Below are positions 29,673 through 42,367 of a stretch of 64,000 nucleotides of DNA, in pieces. This DNA comes from an uncultured Rhodospirillaceae bacterium (GTDB lineage Bacteria > Pseudomonadota > Alphaproteobacteria > UBA8366 > GCA-2717185): NCBI GenBank assembly GCA_964474755.1, contig CAYYUG010000011.1, positions 8,698-72,697 on the forward strand, in the 5' to 3' direction. A program made the position numbers and the translations under genes. The notes under the pieces were generated by a model, which saw nothing but the letters and a program-made list of their open reading frames with translations, did not search any database and was not told where the DNA came from. Numbering within the stretch: position 1 is the stretch's first letter; each line of letters opens with the position of its first letter.

Positions 29673-30035
29673 TTAATTAATTGCTGCACTAACAGCCATC
29701 TCCACGAGCAATTCTTCCGGCGGATCGCGTGGCTCGAAGGTCACGCCAACGCAGACCCGCGCACAAGGATTGTTGCGGTCAGCCCAAGCGACCCAAACAT
29801 CGTTCATCGCCGACTTGTGCGCCATATCGGCGAGATAGACGGTAGCGGTAACCAGTTTCGATTTGTCGGTTCCCGCTTCAAAAAGGAATTTATCGATCCA
29901 ATCGAGGCATTGTTGGGTTTGTCCGGCCATTGTGTCCGTCTTGTCCGGCGCAGACACCACGACATGGATCAAGCCGTTATGTTCCACCGTCCGCGTCCGG
30001 CCGGGATAGCTCTCTGGGCCGCGTATTATTGTCAT
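29673..30035 (-). CDS. RidA/YjgF family protein
   Basis: 120 aa. YjgF-like pattern (GLIHVVV..., ATVYLADM, ARVCVGV). 4-nt overlap with the upstream oxidoreductase. Confidence 0.7.
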   Translation of the reverse strand: MTIIRGPESYPGRTRTVEHNGLIHVVVSAPDKTDTMAGQTQQCLDWIDKFLFEAGTDKSKLVTATVYLADMAHKSAMNDVWVAWADRNNPCARVCVGVTFEPRDPPEELLVEMAVSAAIN

Positions 30036-31177
30036 TGCGCCGTCTCCCCTAGTTTGTCGAAACGATCGATCCGAAACGGTTCAATGGGCAGGTTGGAATT
30101 GCCCTGGGTCACGAGATCTGCAATTACGCTGCCGACGATCGGGCCCAATTGGAAGCCGTGGCCACAATAGCCGAAGGCGTGATATGCATTTTCAGTGGTC
30201 TTGCTCGGCCCGATGAACGGGATGCCATCCGGTGTAAATCCTTCCATCCCGGCCCAGCAGCGGACGATCGAGGCGTCTTTCATGATCGGGAACAGGTGAC
30301 GGGTCGTTTTAGCGCTAATCGCGAGGCCATCGAAATCGATCACCGTGCGGTTTTCATCCGGATAGGCCGTACCGCGATGCCCACCGCCAATAATGACGGT
30401 CCCGTTCTCAGACTGTTTGAACGAAATTTGGCGGCCCTGCGAGCCAACAACCGGTTCGACGAAACGTGGCATGGGGGCTGTCACCATCATCATCAACGCT
30501 TCGATCCTAAGCGGTACGGCCTCGCCCAGCGCCGCCGCAACCCGATCGCCCCAGCCGCCGCTGCAATTAACCAACACGGGCGCTTCAAACTGGCCGCCCG
30601 ACGTCGAAACACGCCAAATCCCGCCGGTCTGTTCGAAACCCGTGGTGGAAAAACCTTCGAAAAACCGGACACCCAAGGATTCGCCTTTGCGTCGGAATGC
30701 AGCAGTGGTGCGCGCAGGATCCGCATAACCATCGCCCGCAACATGTATCCCGCCAATACAATGCGGGGTGACCGTGGGCAGCAGCTCGAACAATGTCTCC
30801 CTATCAATGAAGACCTCGTGTTCATAGCCTCGCTCGTTCAGATGCTGCACGCGAGTTGAAAGAGCTGCTAGTTCCTCTTCGGTTTCCGCGACCTTGACCT
30901 GGCCTGTGGGATGGAACCCGCAACCATCGTCAACCAGATCCTCAATACCGTGCCAAAGCTCGATCGAGGCGGCCGACAGCGGAACCTCGGCGAGATCGCG
31001 GCCAAGACGCCGCACGCCGCCCGCATTGACACCAGAGGCGTGTCGCCCGACATGATCCTTTTCGATGACCATGGAAGCGACACCGCGCCGCGCTAAATGC
31101 AACGCAGCCGAGCAACCATGTAGACCACCCCCGACGATAACCACGTCCGCAGTTTCAACCATGACTAACCTTGGCAC
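30032..31177 (-). CDS. FAD-dependent oxidoreductase (DAO family, sarcosine-oxidase-beta/D-amino-acid-dehydrogenase-like)
   Basis: 381 aa. DVVIVGGGLHGCSAALHLARRG dinucleotide motif and CGHGFQLGP C-terminal DAO motif. Confidence 0.8.
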   Translation of the reverse strand: MPRLVMVETADVVIVGGGLHGCSAALHLARRGVASMVIEKDHVGRHASGVNAGGVRRLGRDLAEVPLSAASIELWHGIEDLVDDGCGFHPTGQVKVAETEEELAALSTRVQHLNERGYEHEVFIDRETLFELLPTVTPHCIGGIHVAGDGYADPARTTAAFRRKGESLGVRFFEGFSTTGFEQTGGIWRVSTSGGQFEAPVLVNCSGGWGDRVAAALGEAVPLRIEALMMMVTAPMPRFVEPVVGSQGRQISFKQSENGTVIIGGGHRGTAYPDENRTVIDFDGLAISAKTTRHLFPIMKDASIVRCWAGMEGFTPDGIPFIGPSKTTENAYHAFGYCGHGFQLGPIVGSVIADLVTQGNSNLPIEPFRIDRFDKLGETAQ

Positions 31178-32574
31178 ATGGGTGGCTCACCGATCCGCTG
31201 CATCCGGTCACCCAGTAACTTTTCGAAGGCAAGCGCAACGGCGAGGGCGCGCTCGTCTTGGTCCAGTGGCGCCATGATTTGCAAACCAACCGGCATTCCC
31301 GCCTTGTCTAACGCAACCGGGATGGTCACCGCGGATAGGGCAAGCAGGTTGCCAGTGCGCGTGTTGCGCAGCGCCGCCATGTTGTTCATGCGGTAGCCGT
31401 CACCGTCGGAAACCGCATCTACGGTTGGCGGGGTGATCGTCACCGTCGGCCCGACGACGACATCCACCTCCGCCAACCGGTCATCCGCGGATGCGGCCAG
31501 TTCAACCAGCCGATCACGGCGCAGCAGATAGTCCACCGCGGTGATTGCTTCCATGCTCTCGAACCGGGACGCAACATTCGGATCCAGGGTTGCCTTGGAC
31601 TGCGCTATCTCGCCATTGATGAAAGCCGCAAATTCTGGCGCGGCCAGACCGCCCCGCATGAAAATCTCGTCCGCTGCCGCGGCTTCCGGCAGATCGAACT
31701 TGGTCATCTGGGCACCGGCGGCGACTAACTCGTCAAGAGCCGTATGCACACCCTCCGCAACGCCCGGATCGCAACCCTCGAAGAAATGATCGCAGACACC
31801 GATATGTACATCCGAGGGAATAAGTTCCGAGAGACCAGCCAGCAACACCTCACCCGGGGTATCGGTAAGCGGATCAATCGCCGCGAATGCAAGCACCGCG
31901 TCGGGGACCGTGCGGGCCAGCACACCCGCCGTATCCAAGCTGGGGCTGAGTGGGACGATCCCATCGAGAGACCAGCGCCCGAAGCTCGTCTTGACCCCGA
32001 CATTGCCGGTAAAGCTCGCTGGCACACGCACAGAACCCGCCGTATCACTGCCGAGCGCCAGTAGTGCGGAACCTTCGCAGAGACTGATCCCGGCACCGGC
32101 ACTGGAGCCGCCAGGCACCCGGTGCGTGGTTGGATCCCAGGGATTGCGTGGCGTGCCCCAATGCGCGTTGGAACCGATGCCGCCAAAGGCAAACTCGACC
32201 GTATGGGTCTTACCTGCGACCGGCGCCAGCGCCGCGCGCAGCGCACCGACCACCGGCCCTTCCCGATTCCATTTCTCAGGCAGAGGCGCCGGGCTACCGG
32301 CGAAGGTCTGGTAACCGGAAACGCCATAAAGATCCTTAACCGAAACGGGAATGCCTTGCAGTGGACCGAAATCAAGGCCCGCGGCGAAGGCCGCGTCGGC
32401 CGCTCGCGCCTCAGCCAGGAACTGGTCGTCCTGACGGCATTTATAGGCATCGAGCGAAACGCCCCACCGGCCGTGATTTTCGATCATCTCCTCCGCGAGC
32501 GCCACGCTAGTGGTCTTGCCATTGCGAAGCGCAACCGCAAGCAACGATATGGATTGTTGAAACAGCCCTGACAT
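31165..32574 (-). CDS. amidase-signature (AS) family amidase
   Basis: 469 aa. The Ser-cisSer-Lys elements are visible: PVSVKDL, GGSSAGAG, GSDTAGSVRVPAS. Confidence 0.88.
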   Translation of the reverse strand: MSGLFQQSISLLAVALRNGKTTSVALAEEMIENHGRWGVSLDAYKCRQDDQFLAEARAADAAFAAGLDFGPLQGIPVSVKDLYGVSGYQTFAGSPAPLPEKWNREGPVVGALRAALAPVAGKTHTVEFAFGGIGSNAHWGTPRNPWDPTTHRVPGGSSAGAGISLCEGSALLALGSDTAGSVRVPASFTGNVGVKTSFGRWSLDGIVPLSPSLDTAGVLARTVPDAVLAFAAIDPLTDTPGEVLLAGLSELIPSDVHIGVCDHFFEGCDPGVAEGVHTALDELVAAGAQMTKFDLPEAAAADEIFMRGGLAAPEFAAFINGEIAQSKATLDPNVASRFESMEAITAVDYLLRRDRLVELAASADDRLAEVDVVVGPTVTITPPTVDAVSDGDGYRMNNMAALRNTRTGNLLALSAVTIPVALDKAGMPVGLQIMAPLDQDERALAVALAFEKLLGDRMQRIGEPPMCQG

Positions 32575-33009
32575 ACGGATCCCTTTGTTTGCGACGACAC
32601 ATGGTAGCGCAAATCGTTACAAAATTTGCAAGAGACCACCATATAATCGAAATACGAGAACACTACCCTGGGACGACTTCTTCACCCCAGCCAACCACGA
32701 TTTCCCGAGAAGAGAAAAAAAGCCAAGAAAATTCGAATCCACAGACTTTCAAACGTTTGCCGACCAGCTAAATTCGCGCCGAGATTGCATAGAGGGCAGA
32801 CTGGCCTTCAGTGCTTCCGCATTTGTCACCGGCACCACAGGTCCAGGCGGTGTGTTAGCAACAAGCCGGCTCAGTTTCGAGCAAGTCGCGGCCAACAGCC
32901 TGGGGAGAGGGGTAGCAGTCATTTTCCCAGCGACGGCGGCACGGAACCGCACTCCAGCATCGTGGCAATCACCAAGAATGATGGTGGCTTCATCAAGTAA
33001 AATTTAATT

Positions 33010-34074
33010 TTAGAAAACACGGTCCTGTGCGACCTCGTTGCTGAACTCGAGCAGGCCCTCGGCCAAGGTGCCGAATTCCATAAAACGGGGATCGCCGGCG
33101 CCACCTTCACGGTAACGCCTGTGCAGCTGCTGGAAGATCACCGCGACGCGGAAGGTAGTTAGCACGCGGTACCATTTAAAACCGGAGAGGTCGCGGCCGG
33201 TGCGTTGGGCGTAGTCCTGCGCCACCTCCTCCCGTGTAGGGAAACCGAAGCTGCCCGTCGGCATCTGTTTTAGCTGCTGCATCGCTTCCGGATCACCGGC
33301 TTCGGTCCAATAGCCCAGCATCGCACCAAGATCGACCAGCGGGTCACCGCGGGTCCCCATATCCCAGTCGAGAACAGCAACCGGATCGAGACACTCAGGA
33401 TCGAGCACCACATTGTCGAGCTTAAAATCGTTGTGCAGGAAAGTAGTCTCCGGCTCCGGCAGTTTGCGGTCAACGGCGAGCCAGGCCTCGATCGCGTTGA
33501 GCACGGCCGGCGGCTCACCGTCCCAGGCTAAACGTGCGCGCTTGAACCAGCCCGCCACAGTGCGTTCTCGGAAGCCTTCCGGCCGTCCAAGGTCGTCAAG
33601 CCCAACGGATGCAGGATCTATCCGATGCAAATCATGCAGCAAGGTAACCAAAGTCTTGCCAACTTTAACACCCGGAGTTCCGCGCGCTGCCACCTCAGCG
33701 GGCATCTCGCCACCGATTACCAAACCCGGCCGGTACTCCATAATGAAGAAGGGCGCCCCCAATACATCCACATCGTCGCAGAACAGTAGACATTTTGGGG
33801 CCAATGGAAATTCACGCCAAAGGCTACTTAAGATTTTACTCTCGCGGCCCATATCATTCGCACCGGGCGGCACCGGGCCGGCCGGCGGGCGCCGTAACAC
33901 CCGCAACTCGCCATCCATTTGCAGCAGATAATTAATATTGCCGAAGCCGGAGGCAAATTGCTTCGGCGGCTCGGGGCCTGTCAAAGCGTGACCATGGTCC
34001 CGCAGATGTCGGTCGAGCGCGTCCCAGTCCTGCTTGACCTCATCATCACGCGACTTAAAGCAGGGTCCGTCCAC
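33010..34074 (-). CDS. phosphotransferase family protein (APH/choline-kinase fold, ACAD10/11-kinase-like)
   Basis: 354 aa. VLRRPP, FFIMEY, the Brenner-type HNDFKLDNVV motif and LDWDMGTRGDPLVDL. Confidence 0.75.
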   Translation of the reverse strand: MDGPCFKSRDDEVKQDWDALDRHLRDHGHALTGPEPPKQFASGFGNINYLLQMDGELRVLRRPPAGPVPPGANDMGRESKILSSLWREFPLAPKCLLFCDDVDVLGAPFFIMEYRPGLVIGGEMPAEVAARGTPGVKVGKTLVTLLHDLHRIDPASVGLDDLGRPEGFRERTVAGWFKRARLAWDGEPPAVLNAIEAWLAVDRKLPEPETTFLHNDFKLDNVVLDPECLDPVAVLDWDMGTRGDPLVDLGAMLGYWTEAGDPEAMQQLKQMPTGSFGFPTREEVAQDYAQRTGRDLSGFKWYRVLTTFRVAVIFQQLHRRYREGGAGDPRFMEFGTLAEGLLEFSNEVAQDRVF

Positions 34075-34081
34075 CGGACGG

Positions 34082-35482
34082 TCAGGCTGCTATCGGTGGG
34101 CGGCGCTCTGTCCAGTCAGTCGCCTGCTCGTAGGCGTGTGCGACCTGATAAATTACCGCCTCATCGAAGGGCTTGCCGACAATCTGCATCGATAGTGGCA
34201 GACCGCTGCTGGAGAACCCAGTCGGAACCGCCAGCGCTGGAGCACCTAGGACGTTGAATGGCGCGCGTGCCTGCCGACCGTACGTCCTCTCGGTCGCCTC
34301 CGCGTCTTCGATCTCGCAGGCGGGATCCATGCTGGACGCAGTGATTGCGACGTCGAAGTCTTCCATCGCCTCTTTGTAAGCCTGCACCAGCTGTGCCTTG
34401 ACCCGGGTCCCATTGACATAGTCCGCGGCGCGGATGAAGGCGCCACCCATAATCCTCTGGCGGGCGAGCTCACCGTAGTCCTCAGGCCGTTCTTGGAACC
34501 ATTTTTCGTGGATTGCATAAGCCTCCGACAGCAGGATCACACGGTTAGTAGCCGCATAGTGGTCGAGCGGCGCCAAGGTGATATCGCGTATTTCCGCGCC
34601 CATTCCACGCAGCACGTCGCGCGCATCCTCGATACCTTTAGCCATCTCCGGATCCGCGGCCATGTCGGTCTCGAAGAAATGCCGGATAACACCTATCCTC
34701 ATTCCCTTGATGCCTTGGCCAAGACGTGAGGTGAAGTCCGGCTTGCCGATGGGCGCACTGCCCGGGTCCTGCGGATCATGCCCGGCGATGACGTTCAGCA
34801 AAATCGCATTATCCTCAACGGTGCGGGTCATCGGACCAACATGATCCAAAGTAAAGGACAGAGGAAAGACCCCGCGACGACTGACCCGACCATACGTCGC
34901 CTTCATGCCAACCAGACCACACATGGACGCCGGGTTACGCACCGAGCCACCCGTATCCGTACCAATCGCTGCCGGCACAAAACCAGCGGCCAATGCGGCT
35001 CCCGATCCGCTCGACGAGCCACCGGTGAAATGCGCAGCGTTCCAAGGGTTGCGCGCCGGCGGCCAGGGAAGGTCAAAGGATGGGCCACCGATCGCAAACT
35101 CATGCGTCGCCGTCTTGCCCAGCAACACCGCGCCAGCCTTTTTGAAGCGATCAGTCACATCGGCATCCATCTCCGGCAGGCTGTTGCGCTGCATAACTTT
35201 AGAATGGCATGTCGTCGGAATACCCACCGCATCGACGATATCCTTCAAGGCGTAGGGTACACCGTGCAGCGGACCGCGCCATTTGCCGGCCATGATCTCA
35301 TCTTCAGCAGCACGTGCACCGTCGAGTGCTTGGTCGGCGGATACATGCAGGAAGGAATTAAAGGCACTGTCATGTGCTGCAATCCGGTCGAGCAACGCCT
35401 GGGTATATTCGACAGGAGAAATATTCTTGCCGCTGAGTAGTTTCGCCGCGTCGGCAATGGTCAGAAAAGCAAAGTCTGTCAT
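34082..35482 (-). CDS. amidase-signature amidase, GatA/AtzE-like
   Basis: 466 aa. PYALKDI, GGSSSGSGAA, GTDTGGSVRNPAS. Its start overlaps the stop of a 64-aa ORF (ATGA). Confidence 0.88.
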   Translation of the reverse strand: MTDFAFLTIADAAKLLSGKNISPVEYTQALLDRIAAHDSAFNSFLHVSADQALDGARAAEDEIMAGKWRGPLHGVPYALKDIVDAVGIPTTCHSKVMQRNSLPEMDADVTDRFKKAGAVLLGKTATHEFAIGGPSFDLPWPPARNPWNAAHFTGGSSSGSGAALAAGFVPAAIGTDTGGSVRNPASMCGLVGMKATYGRVSRRGVFPLSFTLDHVGPMTRTVEDNAILLNVIAGHDPQDPGSAPIGKPDFTSRLGQGIKGMRIGVIRHFFETDMAADPEMAKGIEDARDVLRGMGAEIRDITLAPLDHYAATNRVILLSEAYAIHEKWFQERPEDYGELARQRIMGGAFIRAADYVNGTRVKAQLVQAYKEAMEDFDVAITASSMDPACEIEDAEATERTYGRQARAPFNVLGAPALAVPTGFSSSGLPLSMQIVGKPFDEAVIYQVAHAYEQATDWTERRPPIAA

Positions 35483-35673
35483 AATTCACCTCCCGCAGCC
35501 CGATAAACATGCGCCGGTTCGTCTGCCGGTTCGACATCTATCGTGATACGTGTGCGCAACGATTGGGCGAATGCGAACGCGCGAGCCACATCGTCCGGAT
35601 AGCGATCCGCCATCCGGTCTAAACCTGCAGCGCGGGCTGCCTCCAAAGCCTTTTCAAAATCAATGTCGCCCAT
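35479..35673 (-). CDS. small GatC/AtzG-like (DUF4089-like) partner protein of the amidase
   Basis: 64 aa from the ATG at 35673, preceded by GGGAGGGG: MGDIDFEKALEAARAAGLDRMADRYPDDVARAFAFAQSLRTRITIDVEPADEPAHVYRAAGGEL. Size, position, ATGA coupling and the C-terminal E-P-A-x-V-Y motif recall AtzG. This is recollection, not a search result. Confidence 0.55.
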   Translation of the reverse strand: MGDIDFEKALEAARAAGLDRMADRYPDDVARAFAFAQSLRTRITIDVEPADEPAHVYRAAGGEL

Positions 35674-35750
35674 CCGCCCCTCCCTGGACCGCTGTTCTAG
35701 TGGGTAGAACCTACCAACAAGATAATGAAGCCATTCGCTCTCGGCGCTTG

Positions 35751-36440
35751 TCAAGCGAGGGCGAAGCACGCCGCGTAAGCGCCCGCCATAAAGGGCCATC
35801 GGTGAAGCAACCTGCCGAAGCCGCCATATGGCATCCCTTCACAAGCCACAAGACGCAACCCAACCGCTCGCGCCAATTGTGTCAGGCCGCGGGGCGTCAG
35901 ATGGTTCAAAGGCACCTCAAACCGGGGACCAAACCAGCGAGACCGCAGAATGTCCGGATTGCAAGGGTGCGGCATAATCACGACGAAGCGGCCCTCCCCG
36001 TCTAGCAAGCGTGCGGCAGCGACGAGGGCTGCACCCTGGTCCGGCATGTGTTCAAAAGACCCGACGCACATCGCGAGTTGAAAGCGGCCCAAATTCTCGG
36101 TTTTCGCCGTCGCGCTATCGCCGACATGAAAGGCGATGCTAATGTCAGCGCCGACACTGGCCGCATTCGCTCGCGCCTGGCCCACCATCCCCGGTGCAAT
36201 ATCGAGTCCGACCCCGCCATCAATGCAGTCTGCAAGATCGATCAATTGCCAGCCCGTCCCGCAGCCAAGATCGATAACCCGCGGCCGGCCCAACACTGCA
36301 CAGAGCTTGCGCAGATAGGAGGCGCGGACGGCAAAATCGGCGGCGCGGTTTGATCGTGGGCCGTGCGCCGCATCCCAGCCCGGCGCCTCACGATCAAAGA
36401 AAGTGGCGATGGATGAGCACGTTTTCAGCGTATAACTCAA
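35751..36440 (-). CDS. class I SAM-dependent methyltransferase (TTG start)
   Basis: 229 aa. VIDLGCGTGW SAM motif. The only start candidate in frame after the upstream TGA is the TTG at 36440, which overlaps the stop of the 59-aa ORF (TTGA). Confidence 0.8.
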   Translation of the reverse strand: MSYTLKTCSSIATFFDREAPGWDAAHGPRSNRAADFAVRASYLRKLCAVLGRPRVIDLGCGTGWQLIDLADCIDGGVGLDIAPGMVGQARANAASVGADISIAFHVGDSATAKTENLGRFQLAMCVGSFEHMPDQGAALVAAARLLDGEGRFVVIMPHPCNPDILRSRWFGPRFEVPLNHLTPRGLTQLARAVGLRLVACEGMPYGGFGRLLHRWPFMAGAYAACFALA

Positions 36441-36616
36441 TCGGTAGTGTTCAACGCTGGACCACCGAACGGCAGACGGATTGCCGCTCGGTCATCGTCC
36501 AGCAAGATACCGCTCTTGGTCAGCAGAGATTCGAGAGCTTTGACCTGCACCTTCCGTCCATCCGGCAATTGATCCCACGCCGACGCGAATAGTGCGTTAC
36601 CCCCCAGGTCGGACAT
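36437..36616 (-). CDS. unlisted 59-aa ORF, function unknown
   Basis: My translation: ATG at 36616 is preceded by GAAAGGTAGG, giving MSDLGGNALFASAWDQLPDGRKVQVKALESLLTKSGILLDDDRAAIRLPFGGPALNTTD*. It falls below the 60-aa track cut-off. Its stop is fused to the TTG start of the methyltransferase. Confidence 0.5.
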   Translation of the reverse strand: MSDLGGNALFASAWDQLPDGRKVQVKALESLLTKSGILLDDDRAAIRLPFGGPALNTTD

Positions 36617-36845: not shown

Positions 36846-37496
36846 GTGGAAGACCCCGTTCAAAGACACCCCACTCGCAGCGAACAACTCGATATTTTGG
36901 CAACGCTTATTGCAGACAACGTGCCGGAAGGCCAGGCCGTTCTGGAATTCGGTTGTGGCGTCGGTTACGTGGCGCATTTGATTTTGGAAAAACGCCCCGA
37001 CCTCGACATTGTTGGCGTCGACCGGAAGGTGGACGCACTGCAGCAGGCGGAAATCGACTTGCCGGCTGACCGTTTCACTGGCATCAAAGGTGACCTGGAA
37101 GCGATTGCTGACATCCCGATTCCGGACCGATCCTACGGCGCGATATTTACCGCCCTGACCTTCCACGACCTGCCGGATATGACGAAACAGGTGGTTATCG
37201 GCGCGGCAGCGGCGCGACTGGCCCCAGGCGGCTGTTTCTTATTGTACGACCGGCTGCGCCTGACCGAACCGTCGCTGTTTCCGCTGCAACAGAGCATCTG
37301 GTCCCGCATCGAGCGCGTGCATGGGCAAGGCATGCGCACAGCGGACAATTTCACGGCCTATGAAGAAGACCTTGGCACGGACAACCGCCCCGCATGCCTG
37401 GCCGACTATCTGGCCTGGTTCCCAGCCGCTGGACTAACGCCGCAAGTGTTGCATCTGCACGGGAATGTGGCATTGATTGGCGGTACCCGCGGTTAA
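36846..37496 (+). CDS. class I SAM-dependent methyltransferase
   Basis: 216 aa with a GTG start. VLEFGCGVGY SAM motif. Divergent from the 36616 operon across an AT-rich spacer. Confidence 0.78.
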   Translation: MEDPVQRHPTRSEQLDILATLIADNVPEGQAVLEFGCGVGYVAHLILEKRPDLDIVGVDRKVDALQQAEIDLPADRFTGIKGDLEAIADIPIPDRSYGAIFTALTFHDLPDMTKQVVIGAAAARLAPGGCFLLYDRLRLTEPSLFPLQQSIWSRIERVHGQGMRTADNFTAYEEDLGTDNRPACLADYLAWFPAAGLTPQVLHLHGNVALIGGTRG

Positions 37497-37505
37497 CCTG
37501 CGCCG

Positions 37506-37898
37506 TCAAAGGTATTTGTAGGTACCCTGGCCGGATGAATAGATCTTGCCAGTCTCCGCATCGACAACGCGGATGTCGGAGAAAAACATCGACCGTCCCT
37601 TGCGAATGATGCGTCCTTCGGCGTAAACGCTTTCGCCCATCGCGGTCGCAAGAAAATTGCAGTTCAGCGTGACGGTCACGGCCTTTCGCGTCTCACCGCT
37701 CGCCCGCCCGCCCGCCATGATTCCAGCGATATCCATTAGCGACATCAGCACACCGCCATGAATGTAGTCGCCGCGGTTGCGGTGATGGTTGAAGCCAGTC
37801 ATTTCCAGGCGCACGAACCCCTTGCTCCGTTCGACCACCTTGTAGTCGAGGAAGCGGTGATAGGAATCAGCAGGCGGCGCCGGAAGGGTGTCGTTCAT
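37506..37898 (-). CDS. PaaI-family hotdog-fold thioesterase
   Basis: 130 aa. YIHGGVLMSLMDIAG is the typical PaaI/4HBT motif. Confidence 0.75.
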   Translation of the reverse strand: MNDTLPAPPADSYHRFLDYKVVERSKGFVRLEMTGFNHHRNRGDYIHGGVLMSLMDIAGIMAGGRASGETRKAVTVTLNCNFLATAMGESVYAEGRIIRKGRSMFFSDIRVVDAETGKIYSSGQGTYKYL

Positions 37899-38026
37899 GA
37901 GAGCTCCAATCAGAACCGCCCCTCTTTTAACGATAAATATCGTTGTTTCAAGAGCGCGAAACCCTTGTGCAACAAGCGGGACGTTGTCAAAGTTACTGCG
38001 CGTTGTTGAATTTTGGGAGGCAATTG

Positions 38027-39493
38027 ATGGCGGCTTATGATCTGGTCATTCGAGACGGTGAGGTCGTCACGGCAACGGACCGCATAGCCTGCGATGTAGG
38101 CGTACGCGACGGCAAGGTCGCGGCGCTGGGACAAAGGTTGGATGCGGGGACCCGCGAAATCGACGCCGCGAGTAAGCTGGTACTGCCCGGCGGGATAGAC
38201 AGCCACTGCCATATCGAACAGATGTCTGGCATGGGCGTCATGTGCGCAGACGATTTTTACAGCGGCACCGTAGCCGCCGCGTTTGGCGGAACGACGACGA
38301 TTATCCCTTTCGCGGCCCAGCATCGCGGTCAGTCGGCGCGCGCCGTGGTCGAGGATTATCGAGCGCGCGGCGATGCCAAGGCGGTGATCGACTATGCGGT
38401 CCATCTGATCATCACCGACCCAACCGAACAGGTGCTCGGCCAGGAACTGCCGGCGCTGATCCGTGACGGCTACACTTCCTTCAAGGTCTACATGACCTAT
38501 GAGGGCACCAAGCTCGACGACTACCAAATGCTGGAAGTACTTTCTACAGCCAGGCGCGAGGGCGCGCTGACCATGATCCATGCGGAGAACTGGGACATGA
38601 TCCGCTGGTTGGCGCAACGCCTGATCGATGGCGGTAACCGGGCACCTGTCTATCACGGTATTAGCCATGCGCAGGTCGCCGAGGGGGAGGCGACGCACCG
38701 CGCGATCGCGCTGGGCCGACTACTCGACACGCCATTGCTGATCGTCCACGTCTCCGCCGAAGAGGCGATGGAGGAGATCCGCATGGCCCAGGCAAAGGGG
38801 CTAAAGGTCTATGGTGAGACCTGCCCACAATATCTCTTCCTCACGCTGGACGATCTCGACCGCGAAGGTATGGAGGGCGCGATGTTCTGCTGTAGCCCGC
38901 CGCCGCGAGACAAGGAGGGGCAGGAAGCGATTTGGCGCGGCATCCAGACGGGCGTTTTCCAAGTCGTTTCCTCCGATCACGCGCCCTATCGGTTCGACGA
39001 GACAGGCAAGCTGAAGGCCGGGCCAAACCCATCCTTCAAAGAGATCGCCAATGGCGTGCCGGGCATTGAACTACGCCTGCCTATGCTGTTCTCGGAAGGT
39101 GTCGGCAAGGGGCGCATAGACATCCACCGCTTCGTCGACATCACGTCTACGGCACACGCCAAGATCTATGGTCTCTACCCGCGCAAGGGCACAATCGCGG
39201 TCGGGACTGATGCGGACATAACGATCTGGGATCCGGACCTCAAGGTCACCGTCACGGCGGACATGCTACATGACAATACAGGCTACACGCCCTATGAGGG
39301 CATGCAGCTGACGGGCTGGCCGGTGCAAGTGGTGAGCCGCGGCCGGATCGTGGTCGAGGATGGCACACTGCATGCTGAGCACGGCAGCGGCCTGTTCCAG
39401 CCCTGCAAAAAGCCGGACAGCGCCAAGCCGCTCGGTCTCATTCAGCGCGAACTTGATCCAAAACGAAACTTTGGCGCCCAAATCCTGTTTTAA
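38027..39493 (+). CDS. dihydropyrimidinase / D-hydantoinase
   Basis: ATG at 38027 after GGGAGG. DLVIRDGEVV, PGGIDSHCHIEQ metal motif and FKVYMTY (carboxylated Lys region); cyclic amidohydrolase throughout. Confidence 0.88.
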   Translation: MAAYDLVIRDGEVVTATDRIACDVGVRDGKVAALGQRLDAGTREIDAASKLVLPGGIDSHCHIEQMSGMGVMCADDFYSGTVAAAFGGTTTIIPFAAQHRGQSARAVVEDYRARGDAKAVIDYAVHLIITDPTEQVLGQELPALIRDGYTSFKVYMTYEGTKLDDYQMLEVLSTARREGALTMIHAENWDMIRWLAQRLIDGGNRAPVYHGISHAQVAEGEATHRAIALGRLLDTPLLIVHVSAEEAMEEIRMAQAKGLKVYGETCPQYLFLTLDDLDREGMEGAMFCCSPPPRDKEGQEAIWRGIQTGVFQVVSSDHAPYRFDETGKLKAGPNPSFKEIANGVPGIELRLPMLFSEGVGKGRIDIHRFVDITSTAHAKIYGLYPRKGTIAVGTDADITIWDPDLKVTVTADMLHDNTGYTPYEGMQLTGWPVQVVSRGRIVVEDGTLHAEHGSGLFQPCKKPDSAKPLGLIQRELDPKRNFGAQILF

Positions 39494-39495
39494 AA

Positions 39496-40350
39496 ATGCA
39501 CCCTCATATCACCGTTATTCCGTCGCGCGGCAAACCCGCCCCCGTCGTCTTCGACTCGCCACACAGCGGCAGTCACTACCCTGACGATTTTGATTACATC
39601 GTGCCCCTCTGGATGCTGCGCCGAGGCGAAGACCCGTGCGTCGAAGAATTGTTCGCCGCAGCCCCAGATTACGGCGCGCCGCTGATCGCCGCGGAGTTCA
39701 GCCGTATGTATATTGATCCGAACCGGTCCGCGGCCGATATCGATCCGGACATGCTGGACGGCGAGTGGCCACACCCGATCGAGATCAGCCATAAAACACG
39801 GTCCGGTATGGGTCTAATCCGCAGTCGATCGGGACGCGACCGCAAACTGATATACGAAGGCAAACTGTCGATCGAAGAAGTACAATATCGCATCGAAAAT
39901 TATTGGCGGCCCTATCACGACACCCTGCGCAATCATCTCGATACCACACATGCAACTTTCGGCGCAGCCTGGCACATCAACTGCCATTCGATGCCGTCGA
40001 AATGGGCCACCGGTTTTGAGAAGGCTGGCGAGCCGAACGAGAACGACTACGTGCTTGGCAATCGTGACGGCACCACTGCCGGTTCCGAGTTCACCGAGCT
40101 CGTCCGCGAGACCTTAGCCGGCTTCGGGTTCCATGTCGGCATCAATGACGGACAAAAGGGGGTGGAACTCGTACGTGCCTATAGTGATCCCCCGCAGAAG
40201 CGCCATAGTCTACAAATCGAGATCAACCGCCGGCTCTATTGGGACGAGCGCAACATGAAAAAGCGCGAGGGCCATTTCGAAGAGCAGCAGGCGGTAATGA
40301 CCAAGCTAATCGAGGTAGTCTGCGACTATGCGCGCAGCCGAGTAGGTTAG
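39496..40350 (+). CDS. N-formylglutamate amidohydrolase family protein
   Basis: 284 aa. FDSPHSG, YIDPNR and INCHSMP are FGase-family motifs. Confidence 0.8.
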   Translation: MHPHITVIPSRGKPAPVVFDSPHSGSHYPDDFDYIVPLWMLRRGEDPCVEELFAAAPDYGAPLIAAEFSRMYIDPNRSAADIDPDMLDGEWPHPIEISHKTRSGMGLIRSRSGRDRKLIYEGKLSIEEVQYRIENYWRPYHDTLRNHLDTTHATFGAAWHINCHSMPSKWATGFEKAGEPNENDYVLGNRDGTTAGSEFTELVRETLAGFGFHVGINDGQKGVELVRAYSDPPQKRHSLQIEINRRLYWDERNMKKREGHFEEQQAVMTKLIEVVCDYARSRVG

Positions 40351-40369
40351 TGGCGACTAGCGAATCGTT

Positions 40370-41554
40370 ATGACGGAAGAACGCGTCTTTATTGCCGGTG
40401 CCGGTCCCGTTGGGCTTTCAGCGGCAGCGCGCCTGATCCACCACGGTGTCCCTGTGACTGTGTTCGAGTCCGGCCCCGGCCTAGCCACGGAGTCGCGCGC
40501 TTCTACGTTCCACCCATCGACCCTCGACATGCTGGAAGAAATCGGCGCTGCGGCACCGCTGCAAGCACAGGGGCTTCGCGCACCCCACCTGCAATATCGC
40601 AGCAAGCGCGACGGCCTGATCGCGCGCTTTGATTTTGGCGACATCGACGACCTGACTAAGCATCCGTTTCGGCTGCAATGCGAACAGTGGCGTTTGACAC
40701 AAATTCTCCTCAACAAGCTAACACTTGAATCGGACTTCGAGATCGTCTTCGCTAATGGCGTCGAGGATTGCCACCAGGACGCGGACAGCGTCACCGTCGT
40801 ACTGACAAAGGGAGAAAGGACGGGCCGTTGGCTTATCGGAGCGGACGGTGCAAGCAGTCATGTGCGACACGCGATCAATGTCACGTTCGAAGGCTTCACC
40901 TGGCCAGACCGCTTTCTGGTGCTCAGCACCCCCTTCGAATTCACCAACGAAATCCCTAATCTAGACCCCGTCAGCTATGTAGCCGATCCGCAGCAATGGC
41001 ACTTCCTGCTGCGGATACCGGGCCTGTGGCGGGTCATGCTGCCGATCGCCACAGACATGACGGATGATGCTGCGCTGAATCCGGATTATGGCTGCCGCTG
41101 TCTGGATTGGGTGGCCGCTGGAGCCGGCTCCTCAGAGGTCGTACATCGTACGCTATATCGGGTTCACCAGCGTGTAGCCAAAACGTTTCGCAAGGGCCGA
41201 GTGTTCCTGGCCGGCGATGCAGCGCATATAAACAATCCGCTCGGCGGTATGGGCATGAATGGAGGAATACACGATGCGTTCAATCTGACAGACCGTCTGG
41301 CCCACGTCTGGATGGGACTGTCAGATGCAGCACAACTCGACCTTTACGATTTGCAACGGCGGACGGTCACCATGGAAGCGGTGCAAGTCCAGACCATTCA
41401 AAACAAGAAGGACATGGAATCTGCTGATGAAAACGATCAAGCCCAATTCCGGAACCGTCTGCGTAACATCATGAGAGACCCAGAAAAAAATCGTGCCTAC
41501 CTGCAACGGATTTCCATGATCGAGTCCTTGCAACGCGCAGCGAAAATCAGCTGA
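40370..41554 (+). CDS. FAD-dependent aromatic-ring-type monooxygenase
   Basis: 394 aa. VFIAGAGPVGLSAA and LAGDAAHINNPLGGMGMNGGIHDA are class A flavoprotein monooxygenase motifs. Confidence 0.82.
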   Translation: MTEERVFIAGAGPVGLSAAARLIHHGVPVTVFESGPGLATESRASTFHPSTLDMLEEIGAAAPLQAQGLRAPHLQYRSKRDGLIARFDFGDIDDLTKHPFRLQCEQWRLTQILLNKLTLESDFEIVFANGVEDCHQDADSVTVVLTKGERTGRWLIGADGASSHVRHAINVTFEGFTWPDRFLVLSTPFEFTNEIPNLDPVSYVADPQQWHFLLRIPGLWRVMLPIATDMTDDAALNPDYGCRCLDWVAAGAGSSEVVHRTLYRVHQRVAKTFRKGRVFLAGDAAHINNPLGGMGMNGGIHDAFNLTDRLAHVWMGLSDAAQLDLYDLQRRTVTMEAVQVQTIQNKKDMESADENDQAQFRNRLRNIMRDPEKNRAYLQRISMIESLQRAAKIS

Positions 41555-41595
41555 CAGCATTGATTCCAAAAATTACAGCTGTCCCGATTCCGATT

Positions 41596-41613
41596 CGCGG
41601 CGATAGTGCCGCG
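41596..41613. terminator. GC hairpin between convergent genes
   Basis: CGCGGC-GATAGT-GCCGCG, a perfect 6-bp stem between the monooxygenase and racemase 3' ends. There is no clear U-tract. Confidence 0.25.
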
Positions 41614-41710
41614 GCCCAGTCCAAGCCTAATAATAACCGGTCTCATGGCCCGACAGCACGAGCAGCCAATTACCGTCCCTGATCGGACGACCTAATATGT
41701 GACTAAAGTG

Positions 41711-42367
41711 TTACCCACGGCACAGCCGCCCCATCGCCATTGCGACTGCAGCCTGACTAGGTTCAACTACGGGTAGGTTGACCGCGTCGGAGACCTGGTC
41801 GCGGCAGCGCGCCATGCCGGCGCAGCCAAGGATCAGCACATCGGCACCATCTTCGTCGCGCAACGCGCGGCCCGTCTCAATCATACGATCGAGCAACTTT
41901 TCCTCCTGCGCCAATTCAACAACGCCCAAACCGATTGCACGGTCGCCCGCGCTGCGGGCCTCAATCCCCATCTGCCGCACGTAGCGGCCGTGTCTCTTAA
42001 CCGACGGTTCCAGGATCGAGATGACACCGAACCTCTCACCCTGCGTCATCGCGGTCAGATATGCGGATTCGGCGATACCCAGTACGGGGTGTTCCGTCCG
42101 CTCACGCGCAGTGTGCAGGCCAGGGTCGCTGAAACAAGCGATCACGAACGCACCGGCATCGTTGTCCCTTGCATTAATGTAGTCGCAGAGCGGCAGAATA
42201 ATACTGTCGGAATCATGCTGGCTTTCGATCCCCGGCGGCCCTTCATTCATGGTGACGCACTCGATCGTCGGTCCACCCTCAAGTCGTAAAGGTTGCATCG
42301 CGGTATTGATCGCCTCGGTACAAGCAGCCGTCGAGTTCGGGTTAATGACAACTATGGATTCGGTCAT
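41711..42367 (-). CDS. Asp/Glu/hydantoin racemase family protein
   Basis: 218 aa. VINPNS, CFSDPGL and LGCAGM give two Cys-containing motifs like hydantoin racemases. Confidence 0.78.
   Translation of the reverse strand: MTESIVVINPNSTAACTEAINTAMQPLRLEGGPTIECVTMNEGPPGIESQHDSDSIILPLCDYINARDNDAGAFVIACFSDPGLHTARERTEHPVLGIAESAYLTAMTQGERFGVISILEPSVKRHGRYVRQMGIEARSAGDRAIGLGVVELAQEEKLLDRMIETGRALRDEDGADVLILGCAGMARCRDQVSDAVNLPVVEPSQAAVAMAMGRLCRG

Follow-up and report, generated by a model that had tools for sequence, protein, structure and literature searches.

We suggest that a 64-amino-acid (aa) protein and a 466-aa amidase-signature enzyme form an obligate two-subunit amidase of the kind represented by GatC-GatA and AtzG-AtzE. 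The two are encoded by adjacent genes in a 64,000-nucleotide stretch of DNA from an uncultured Rhodospirillaceae bacterium (GenBank assembly GCA_964474755.1, contig CAYYUG010000011.1, positions 8,698 to 72,697; this whole stretch is the window referred to below). Judging from sequence comparison, a structural model and analogy with those systems, we put the probability of this reading at about 70%. Because the family of the small protein always accompanies this amidase, the small protein is most likely a required partner subunit. The large subunit would carry out the catalysis, as a competent Ser-cisSer-Lys amidase that cleaves an amide bond with release of ammonia, and the small, non-catalytic protein would be produced alongside it by translational coupling. 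We infer that the helices and the extended EPAHV[YF]R tail of the small protein attach it to the large subunit and that, in a chaperone-like role, the small protein is necessary for a soluble and active amidase. AtzG likewise has no catalytic role, and without it AtzE is insoluble (PMC6219798). The features of the pair, in window coordinates, are as follows.

35684-35677, minus strand: Shine-Dalgarno sequence GGGAGGGG, 3 nt before the ATG of the 64-aa open reading frame (ORF), read from the sequence.

35479-35673, minus strand: 64-aa small protein, the proposed non-catalytic amidase partner subunit (ORF, homologues, codon-position bias, AlphaFold2 model).

35500-35523, minus strand: hallmark motif DEPAHVYR, residues 51-58 of the small protein (family alignment).

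35479-35482, minus strand: ATGA overlap between the stop of the 64-aa ORF and the start of the amidase gene, read from the sequence.

34082-35482, minus strand: 466-aa amidase-signature enzyme, amidase 1 (Pfam Amidase, 363 bits).

35243-35245, 35015-35017 and 34943-34945, minus strand: catalytic triad of the 466-aa amidase, K80, S156 and S180 respectively.

The TGA that ends the 64-aa ORF shares its ATGA with the ATG of the amidase, so that translational coupling of the two genes is implied. When the same junction was measured in 22 related loci, it proved to be a 4-nt ATGA-type overlap in 12 and a gap of 2-14 nt in the others. The first-pass annotation, a reading of the sequence alone, had reported a strong Shine-Dalgarno sequence and an ATGA overlap for the 64-aa ORF, and both are there to be read; every ORF that it listed lies where it was placed, on the minus strand.

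One argument for a functional pair comes from the constancy with which the two genes occur together. Searching one genome per GTDB species with the small protein yielded 25 loci, all from alpha- and betaproteobacterial metagenome-assembled genomes (MAGs), and in 25/25 the small ORF immediately precedes an orthologue of the 466-aa amidase (55-91% identity), with which it overlaps or from which it is separated by at most 14 nt. In two of these loci, L018 and L021, which are on short contigs, the contig end cuts off the amidase. In another, from a betaproteobacterial MAG (L019:10180-11700), the amidase gene downstream of the small ORF changes reading frame at about residue 235, and is either a pseudogene or the product of an assembly error. 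Since this first sample had been selected via the small protein, loci were also sampled from the amidase side, and all nine of these have an unannotated ORF of 62-100 aa directly upstream. In the six loci picked by amidase similarity (66-73% identity), which include Tectimicrobiota and Chloroflexota, the upstream ORF is in every case unannotated, 62-82 aa long and provided with an EPAH[VT]F motif. A small upstream ORF likewise abuts each of three plasmid-borne amidases of 46-48% identity, from the cultured strains Planktothrix agardhii PCC7805 (plasmid p1), Agrobacterium sp. T29 (plasmid NZ_CP040642) and Cupriavidus taiwanensis STM 8555 (plasmid NZ_LT984809), and these ORFs have related, more divergent C-terminal motifs (SPFAHQFQV, EPSTVFHL and EASHIFRAG).

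The pairing is therefore seen in 34/34 loci examined, 25 from the small-protein side and nine from the amidase side, and in at least four phyla: in Alpha- and Betaproteobacteria, Tectimicrobiota and Chloroflexota, with a cyanobacterium among the three more distant loci. The layout, which the first-pass annotation had likened to GatC-GatA and AtzG-AtzE, is thus borne out well beyond the window. The two proteins have also diverged together, their pairwise identities being correlated with r = 0.89, a value reached by 0 of 2000 Mantel permutations. What surrounds the pair differs widely between lineages, and includes TctC binding proteins or receptors, luciferase-like monooxygenases, DUF1028 proteins, thiamine pyrophosphate enzymes, ATP-binding cassette (ABC) transporter binding proteins and LysR or LuxR regulators; the pair alone is thus conserved. 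The neighbours of the distant pairs, when searched for a clue to the substrate, gave no shared theme apart from uptake and the catabolism of nitrogen compounds or amides. The amidase orthologues are numerous, with more than a hundred sequence clusters at an identity of at least 64%.

The small ORF is clearly a real gene, and it defines a family of its own. Many public gene calls give it as a 106-aa form (35479-35799) that begins at an upstream ATG and overlaps the 3' end of the methyltransferase gene lying before it. We rejected this start by comparison with relatives, in which the frame opens merely 5-6 codons before the ATG of the 64-aa form; the shorter start is therefore the correct one. 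Between the window and its counterpart in locus L001, the differences at codon positions 1, 2 and 3 number 9, 10 and 34, and this concentration on third positions indicates that the ORF is protein-coding and under purifying selection. A lack of homologues had been named in the first-pass annotation as a reason to abandon the subunit idea, and homologues exist: 12 close ones were found, and a HMMER search of 1.84 billion cluster representatives gave 61 matches with E <= 0.001, of which 57 are proteins of 40-118 aa.

Members of the family are about 60-70 aa long and end in a C-terminal EPAH[VT][YF] motif, the consensus being ...A...GL.RL...FP.....A.A.....RLP.D..PADEPAHVFRA. E52 and P53 of the motif are invariant across 52 diverse family members, and the motif was found in every partner ORF of orthologous amidases. 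All of the public copies that we looked up are labelled 'hypothetical protein', including the window's own (NCBI MEC9153395.1, from a Pseudomonadota MAG), and the family has no name. The AlphaFold2 model of the small protein (mean pLDDT confidence score 86.8) shows three helices (residues 6-15, 19-24 and 26-42) and, after them, an extended tail. The helical central part of the small-protein profile (about positions 16-45) is also matched, in 3-11 repeated stretches, by three much longer proteins, P0015 (942 aa), P0020 (684 aa) and P0067 (690 aa); these may be repeat proteins that share a helix motif, or the matches may be a compositional artefact.

The partner of the small protein has the hallmarks of a working amidase. 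It matches Pfam PF01425 with the 363 bits listed above, and both the Lys/cis-Ser/Ser triad and the GGSS[GS]G motif are present, with K80 in LKD, S156 in GGSSSG (residues 154-159) and S180 in GGSVR (GGS at 178-180). K80 and S156 are invariant among 23 orthologues, and the S180 column is invariant in the alignment of 21 pairs (fused position 274). Among solved structures it comes closest to GatA (271 bits) and next to AtzE (211 bits), both of which are known to depend on a small partner; this agrees with its earlier description as GatA-like. Nevertheless, it falls below every curated NCBIfam cut-off, scoring 333 bits on the GatA model TIGR00132 against a cut-off of 481, and no gatB is found among the neighbouring genes of the window locus. 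When the enzyme is aligned to GatA of Staphylococcus aureus, R358 is kept, Y309 is replaced by His and D425 by Gln, the last of these within an invariant YGRQARAPFN segment. We take these three positions to be the glutamine-binding residues of GatA, as in structural work on the S. aureus GatCAB complex. Since the carboxylate-binding arginine is conserved, a carboxylate-bearing substrate is probable, and since the two other positions have changed, that substrate is probably not glutamine; both suggestions are weak.

Several results weigh against a subunit role, and most of them concern the relationship of the small protein to described partner families. In searches of PF13318 (the AtzG-like family, formerly DUF4089, with a gathering cut-off of 24 bits) and PF02686 (GatC), neither the window protein nor any of 51 relatives gave a match with E <= 1. 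Against the NCBIfam models, the window protein and five relatives had no specific match. A profile of the small family, built from two alignments, retrieved neither AtzG nor GatC from the PDB sequences, only matches at chance level. Comparison of the small family with five GatC sequences by hhalign gave a probability of <1%. When the structural model was searched with Foldseek against 350,542 PDB chains, AtzG was not retrieved, and the GatC matches that were obtained are not significant (E = 0.78 and 6.6, TM-scores 0.33-0.36). Finally, conserved adjacency and co-divergence are to be expected of any tightly linked gene pair, and do not prove that the two products form a complex.

Both Pfam models recognised their positive controls, AtzG of pADP-1 (L032:2719-2925) with 36.2 bits on PF13318 and S. 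aureus GatC with 81.7 bits on PF02686. Three more divergent partner ORFs do not match PF13318 either. For the HpxX model (NCBIfam NF033624), there was no match with E <= 1 among the five relatives scanned and none for the window protein; the AtzG control matches this model weakly, below its cut-off. The search of the 64-aa product against DUF4089 and GatC, put forward with the first-pass annotation as a check, thus came back negative.

When, in a more remote comparison, the small family was aligned by hhalign to the AtzG family (16 proteins), the probability was 77% (E = 2e-5, 51 columns, score 29.2), and with a broader alignment of the small family it was 48% (23 columns, score 24.8). Both scores are above all 150 column shuffles (mean 10, standard deviation about 2, maximum 19), the shuffles of the 29.2 comparison having a mean of 10.0, a standard deviation of 2.1 and a maximum of 18.4. 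Most of the signal comes from the C-terminal motif, the aligned core being PADEPAHVYRA in the small family and PE.ELAEIYRPA in AtzG, whose motif is E-L-A-E-I-Y-R. The similarity of the C-terminus to the DUF4089/AtzG ending, noted in the first-pass annotation, thus comes down to a remote profile-profile resemblance centred on that very segment, and not to membership of DUF4089. The failed comparison with GatC carries little weight, because the bona fide AtzG family, itself descended from GatC, likewise gives <1% against GatC and the test is powerless here. In the Foldseek search, the first and second ranks were both taken by GatC (9a62_B and 2f2a_C); in the control search with a model of AtzG, its own crystal structure came first and GatC was at rank 37. 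Taken together, this modest evidence from sequence and model points to the small protein as a distant relative of GatC and AtzG outside the described families, but is no proof of it. In the literature on DUF4089, PDB 9O56 and GatC-like amidase partners, we found nothing relevant beyond the AtzH paper.

The first-pass annotation placed the pair in an operon with the kinase and the methyltransferase, and Pfam supports the families that it assigned to the neighbouring genes. The features around the pair are as follows.

36437-36616 (and 36500-36536), minus strand: 59-aa ORF, a deletion scar (DNA alignment to locus L005, gene maps of relatives, tblastn).

35751-36440, minus strand: 229-aa class I S-adenosylmethionine-dependent methyltransferase (Pfam Methyltransf_25/23/31/11; VIDLGCGTG at residues 55-63).

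33010-34074, minus strand: 354-aa APH-family kinase of the ACAD10/11 kinase-domain type (Pfam APH, 119 bits).

32575-33009: 435-bp gap with both ends of an internally deleted phoX gene, the phoX remnants lying at 32729-32994 on the plus strand (tblastn).

31165-32574, minus strand: 469-aa second amidase-signature enzyme, amidase 2 (Pfam Amidase, 241 bits).

30032-31177, minus strand: DAO-family oxidoreductase dependent on flavin adenine dinucleotide (FAD), downstream of amidase 2 (Pfam DAO, 237 bits).

29673-30035, minus strand: RidA-family deaminase, downstream of amidase 2 (Pfam Ribonuc_L-PSP, 55 bits).

The methyltransferase ORF has a TTG start and a 4-nt overlap with the 59-aa ORF, and amidase 2 has no small partner of its own. 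The label of ACAD10-type given to the kinase holds good: its PF01636 match is accompanied by the motifs HNDFKLDN (the HxDxxxxN catalytic loop) and DWD (with the metal-binding Asp), it aligns along its whole length with PDB 9o56_A (270 bits), which is an unpublished entry under the name 'aminoglycoside phosphotransferase', and it matches the kinase domain of ACAD11 (8v3v) with 136 bits.

Comparison of related loci separates what is core from what was added. The kinase stands beside the pair only in loci L001-L010, wherever these extend that far (L001 and L004-L010), and the methyltransferase is upstream of the pair only in L001-L010 (in L001 as a tblastn match with no called gene); the amidases of these ten loci are at least 81% identical to that of the window. 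Loci L033 and L043, in which amidase identity is 70-73%, contain DUF2336, a PAS/LuxR regulator, the small ORF, amidase 1 and amidase 2, and have neither the kinase nor a methyltransferase of the 229-aa type at the locus. Their amidase 2 orthologues (64-68% identity) directly follow the amidase 1 orthologue. Since the small protein and the two amidases are adjacent there without kinase or methyltransferase, we consider these three to be the ancestral module. The DAO oxidoreductase and RidA are kept after amidase 2 in L001, L007, L008 and L010, and the oxidoreductase also in L006 before the contig ends.

On this comparison of sequences, the kinase and the methyltransferase are recent, lineage-specific additions to the locus; confined as they are to the closest relatives, they were ruled out as core components. 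The module of amide hydrolysis, phosphorylation and methylation that the first-pass annotation had proposed is accordingly not a conserved unit, and amidase 2, which it had set outside the module, is instead the ancestral direct neighbour of amidase 1. A survey of synteny, also suggested there with kinase neighbours in mind, found the small ORF and amidase paired in all 34 loci examined but the kinase in the closest relatives only. In this lineage, evolution started from small ORF, amidase 1 and amidase 2, with a methyltransferase and an ACAD10/11-type kinase gained later and a PAS/LuxR regulator lost.

Two features between these genes turned out to be remnants of deletions. The 59-aa ORF, which had been counted among the operon partners, is indeed present but joins the beginning of the DUF2336 gene, promoter and initial codons included, to the last codons of the PAS/LuxR regulator gene, with about 2.5 kb lost relative to L005. 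It was rejected as a functional partner, being by DNA alignment to L005 a chimeric deletion scar, and because of this deletion the window genome is without the locus's PAS/LuxR regulator. The 435-bp gap before amidase 2, DAO and RidA is likewise where it was reported to be, and it is a gutted phoX gene: the relatives have at this position an intact 610-aa PhoX (alkaline phosphatase), and a tblastn search of the gap with PhoX of L001 matches residues 3-59 and 576-609. These two deletion scars within 4 kb may reflect genome streamlining.

A block beyond the methyltransferase (36846-42367), conserved in relatives, looks like a nitrogen-catabolic cluster of hydantoin or N-carbamoyl type. It encodes a 216-aa methyltransferase, a hotdog thioesterase, a hydantoinase-like amidohydrolase (516 aa), an N-formylglutamate amidohydrolase-family protein, an FAD monooxygenase and an Asp/Glu racemase, and in relatives a CN-hydrolase follows; the block might supply the substrates of the amidases. 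On the Agrobacterium sp. T29 plasmid NZ_CP040642 (L039, 654-8804), the divergent pair lies among genes that handle coenzyme A (CoA), with an acetate-CoA ligase family gene, a PaaI thioesterase, a CaiB CoA-transferase and an NTF2-family gene as neighbours. This context, together with the hotdog thioesterase of the window and the ACAD11-type (acyl-CoA) kinase, hints at a link to CoA-thioester metabolism.

We have considered four other explanations, all of which we regard as less likely than a two-subunit amidase. The small ORF could be a conserved upstream gene with a role of its own, as a regulator or a translational-coupling device, and not a subunit at all. The case for a subunit does rest on gene linkage and weak remote similarities, which leaves some room for such a gene; however, the protein is under purifying selection, has an invariant motif and co-diverges with the amidase, the pairing outlasts a complete turnover of neighbours across phyla, and the best remote matches are precisely the known amidase partner subunits, so we consider an independent role unlikely. 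That the pair is instead a true orthologue of AtzG-AtzE or HpxX-HpxY, acting on 1-carboxybiuret or oxalurate, seems highly unlikely to us. The architecture is the same, hhalign ties the small family to the AtzG family, and the AtzE models are among the better NCBIfam matches of the amidase, with 286 bits on TIGR02715 and 298 on NF006631. These scores are, however, far under the cut-offs of 425.75 and 461, which real AtzE clears with 771 and 668 bits, and the two enzymes are 33% identical. Moreover, the small protein misses both PF13318 and the HpxX model, each of which AtzG matches (HpxX below the cut-off), and the locus has no AtzH/NTF2, AtzD or AtzF gene.

The other two explanations give the kinase and the methyltransferase a central part. 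A GatCA-like pair and a kinase might make up a system analogous to the GatCAB transamidosome but for small molecules, so that the enzyme would serve biosynthesis as an amidotransferase and not catabolism as an amidase. In such a system the amidase would supply ammonia, the kinase would phosphorylate an acceptor (as GatB does), the acceptor would be amidated and the methyltransferase would finish the product. GatC-like, GatA-like and ATP-dependent kinase genes do occur in one operon here, and the GatA model gives the amidase a slightly better score than the AtzE model does. We nevertheless hold this to be very improbable: the kinase accompanies the pair in one narrow lineage only and is absent at 70-73% identity, the arginine alone is kept of the presumed glutamine-binding positions of GatA (Y309, R358 and D425), the 64-aa protein is without the GatB-contacting C-terminal half of GatC, and APH-type kinases normally phosphorylate hydroxyl groups. 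Least probable of all, and to our minds scarcely credible, is that the small ORF encodes a precursor or scaffold peptide like those of ribosomally synthesized and post-translationally modified peptides (RiPPs), to be modified by the kinase, the methyltransferase and the amidase. What might suggest it are weak NCBIfam matches of the kinase to LxmK (a lanthipeptide kinase, 23 bits) and of the methyltransferase to ApyS (a RiPP methyltransferase, 24 bits), but the cut-offs are 315 and 400, and the kinase is far closer to 9o56 and the ACAD11 kinase domain. The peptide also has no Cys/Ser/Thr-rich core, and most lineages have the pair without kinase or methyltransferase.

If the small protein is required, as the two-subunit reading predicts, the consequences would extend well beyond this locus. 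It seems that a very large group of 'stand-alone' amidases comes with this unnamed partner family, and the pair occurs in Proteobacteria, Tectimicrobiota and Chloroflexota, with more divergent versions on cyanobacterial and rhizobial plasmids. Many enzymes that now go by the annotation 'amidase', or wrongly by that of GatA, would then really have two subunits, efforts in biocatalysis or metagenomic enzyme discovery to express them without the partner would be prone to failure, and gene callers that skip or mis-start ORFs of 60-70 aa would hide the partner.

One close parallel is AtzG-AtzE, the 1-carboxybiuret hydrolase of Pseudomonas sp. ADP (PDB 6C62), in which a gene for a protein of about 65 aa is likewise directly upstream of that for a GatA-like amidase. 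AtzG resembles the small protein in its helical N-terminal part, its extended tail and a C-terminal motif of the E-x-A-x-[VI]-[YF]-R type, but the motif of the window family is EPAHV[YF]R where AtzG has ELAEIYRPAPFP, and the window locus has other gene neighbourhoods, without atzH, atzD and atzF. In GatC-GatA (PDB 2DF4/2F2A; PF02686; TIGR00132) the gene order is the same, with the small gene first, whereas GatC is about 95-100 aa long and the 64-aa protein misses its C-terminal half. HpxX-HpxY, from oxalurate catabolism in Klebsiella, is another small protein-amidase pair of AtzG/AtzE type in nitrogen catabolism, but the window locus has no hpxW or hpxZ neighbours. As for the added kinase, the N-terminal kinase domain of ACAD10/ACAD11 and stand-alone bacterial kinases (PDB 8V3V, 3DXP and 9O56) align with it over the full length, and the difference is that no acyl-CoA dehydrogenase domain or gene stands beside the window kinase. 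To our knowledge, the only amidase-signature enzymes described as needing a small partner are GatA with GatC, and AtzE or HpxY with AtzG or HpxX. The locus described here points to a further, much larger group of partnered amidases, whose partner family has so far gone unnamed.

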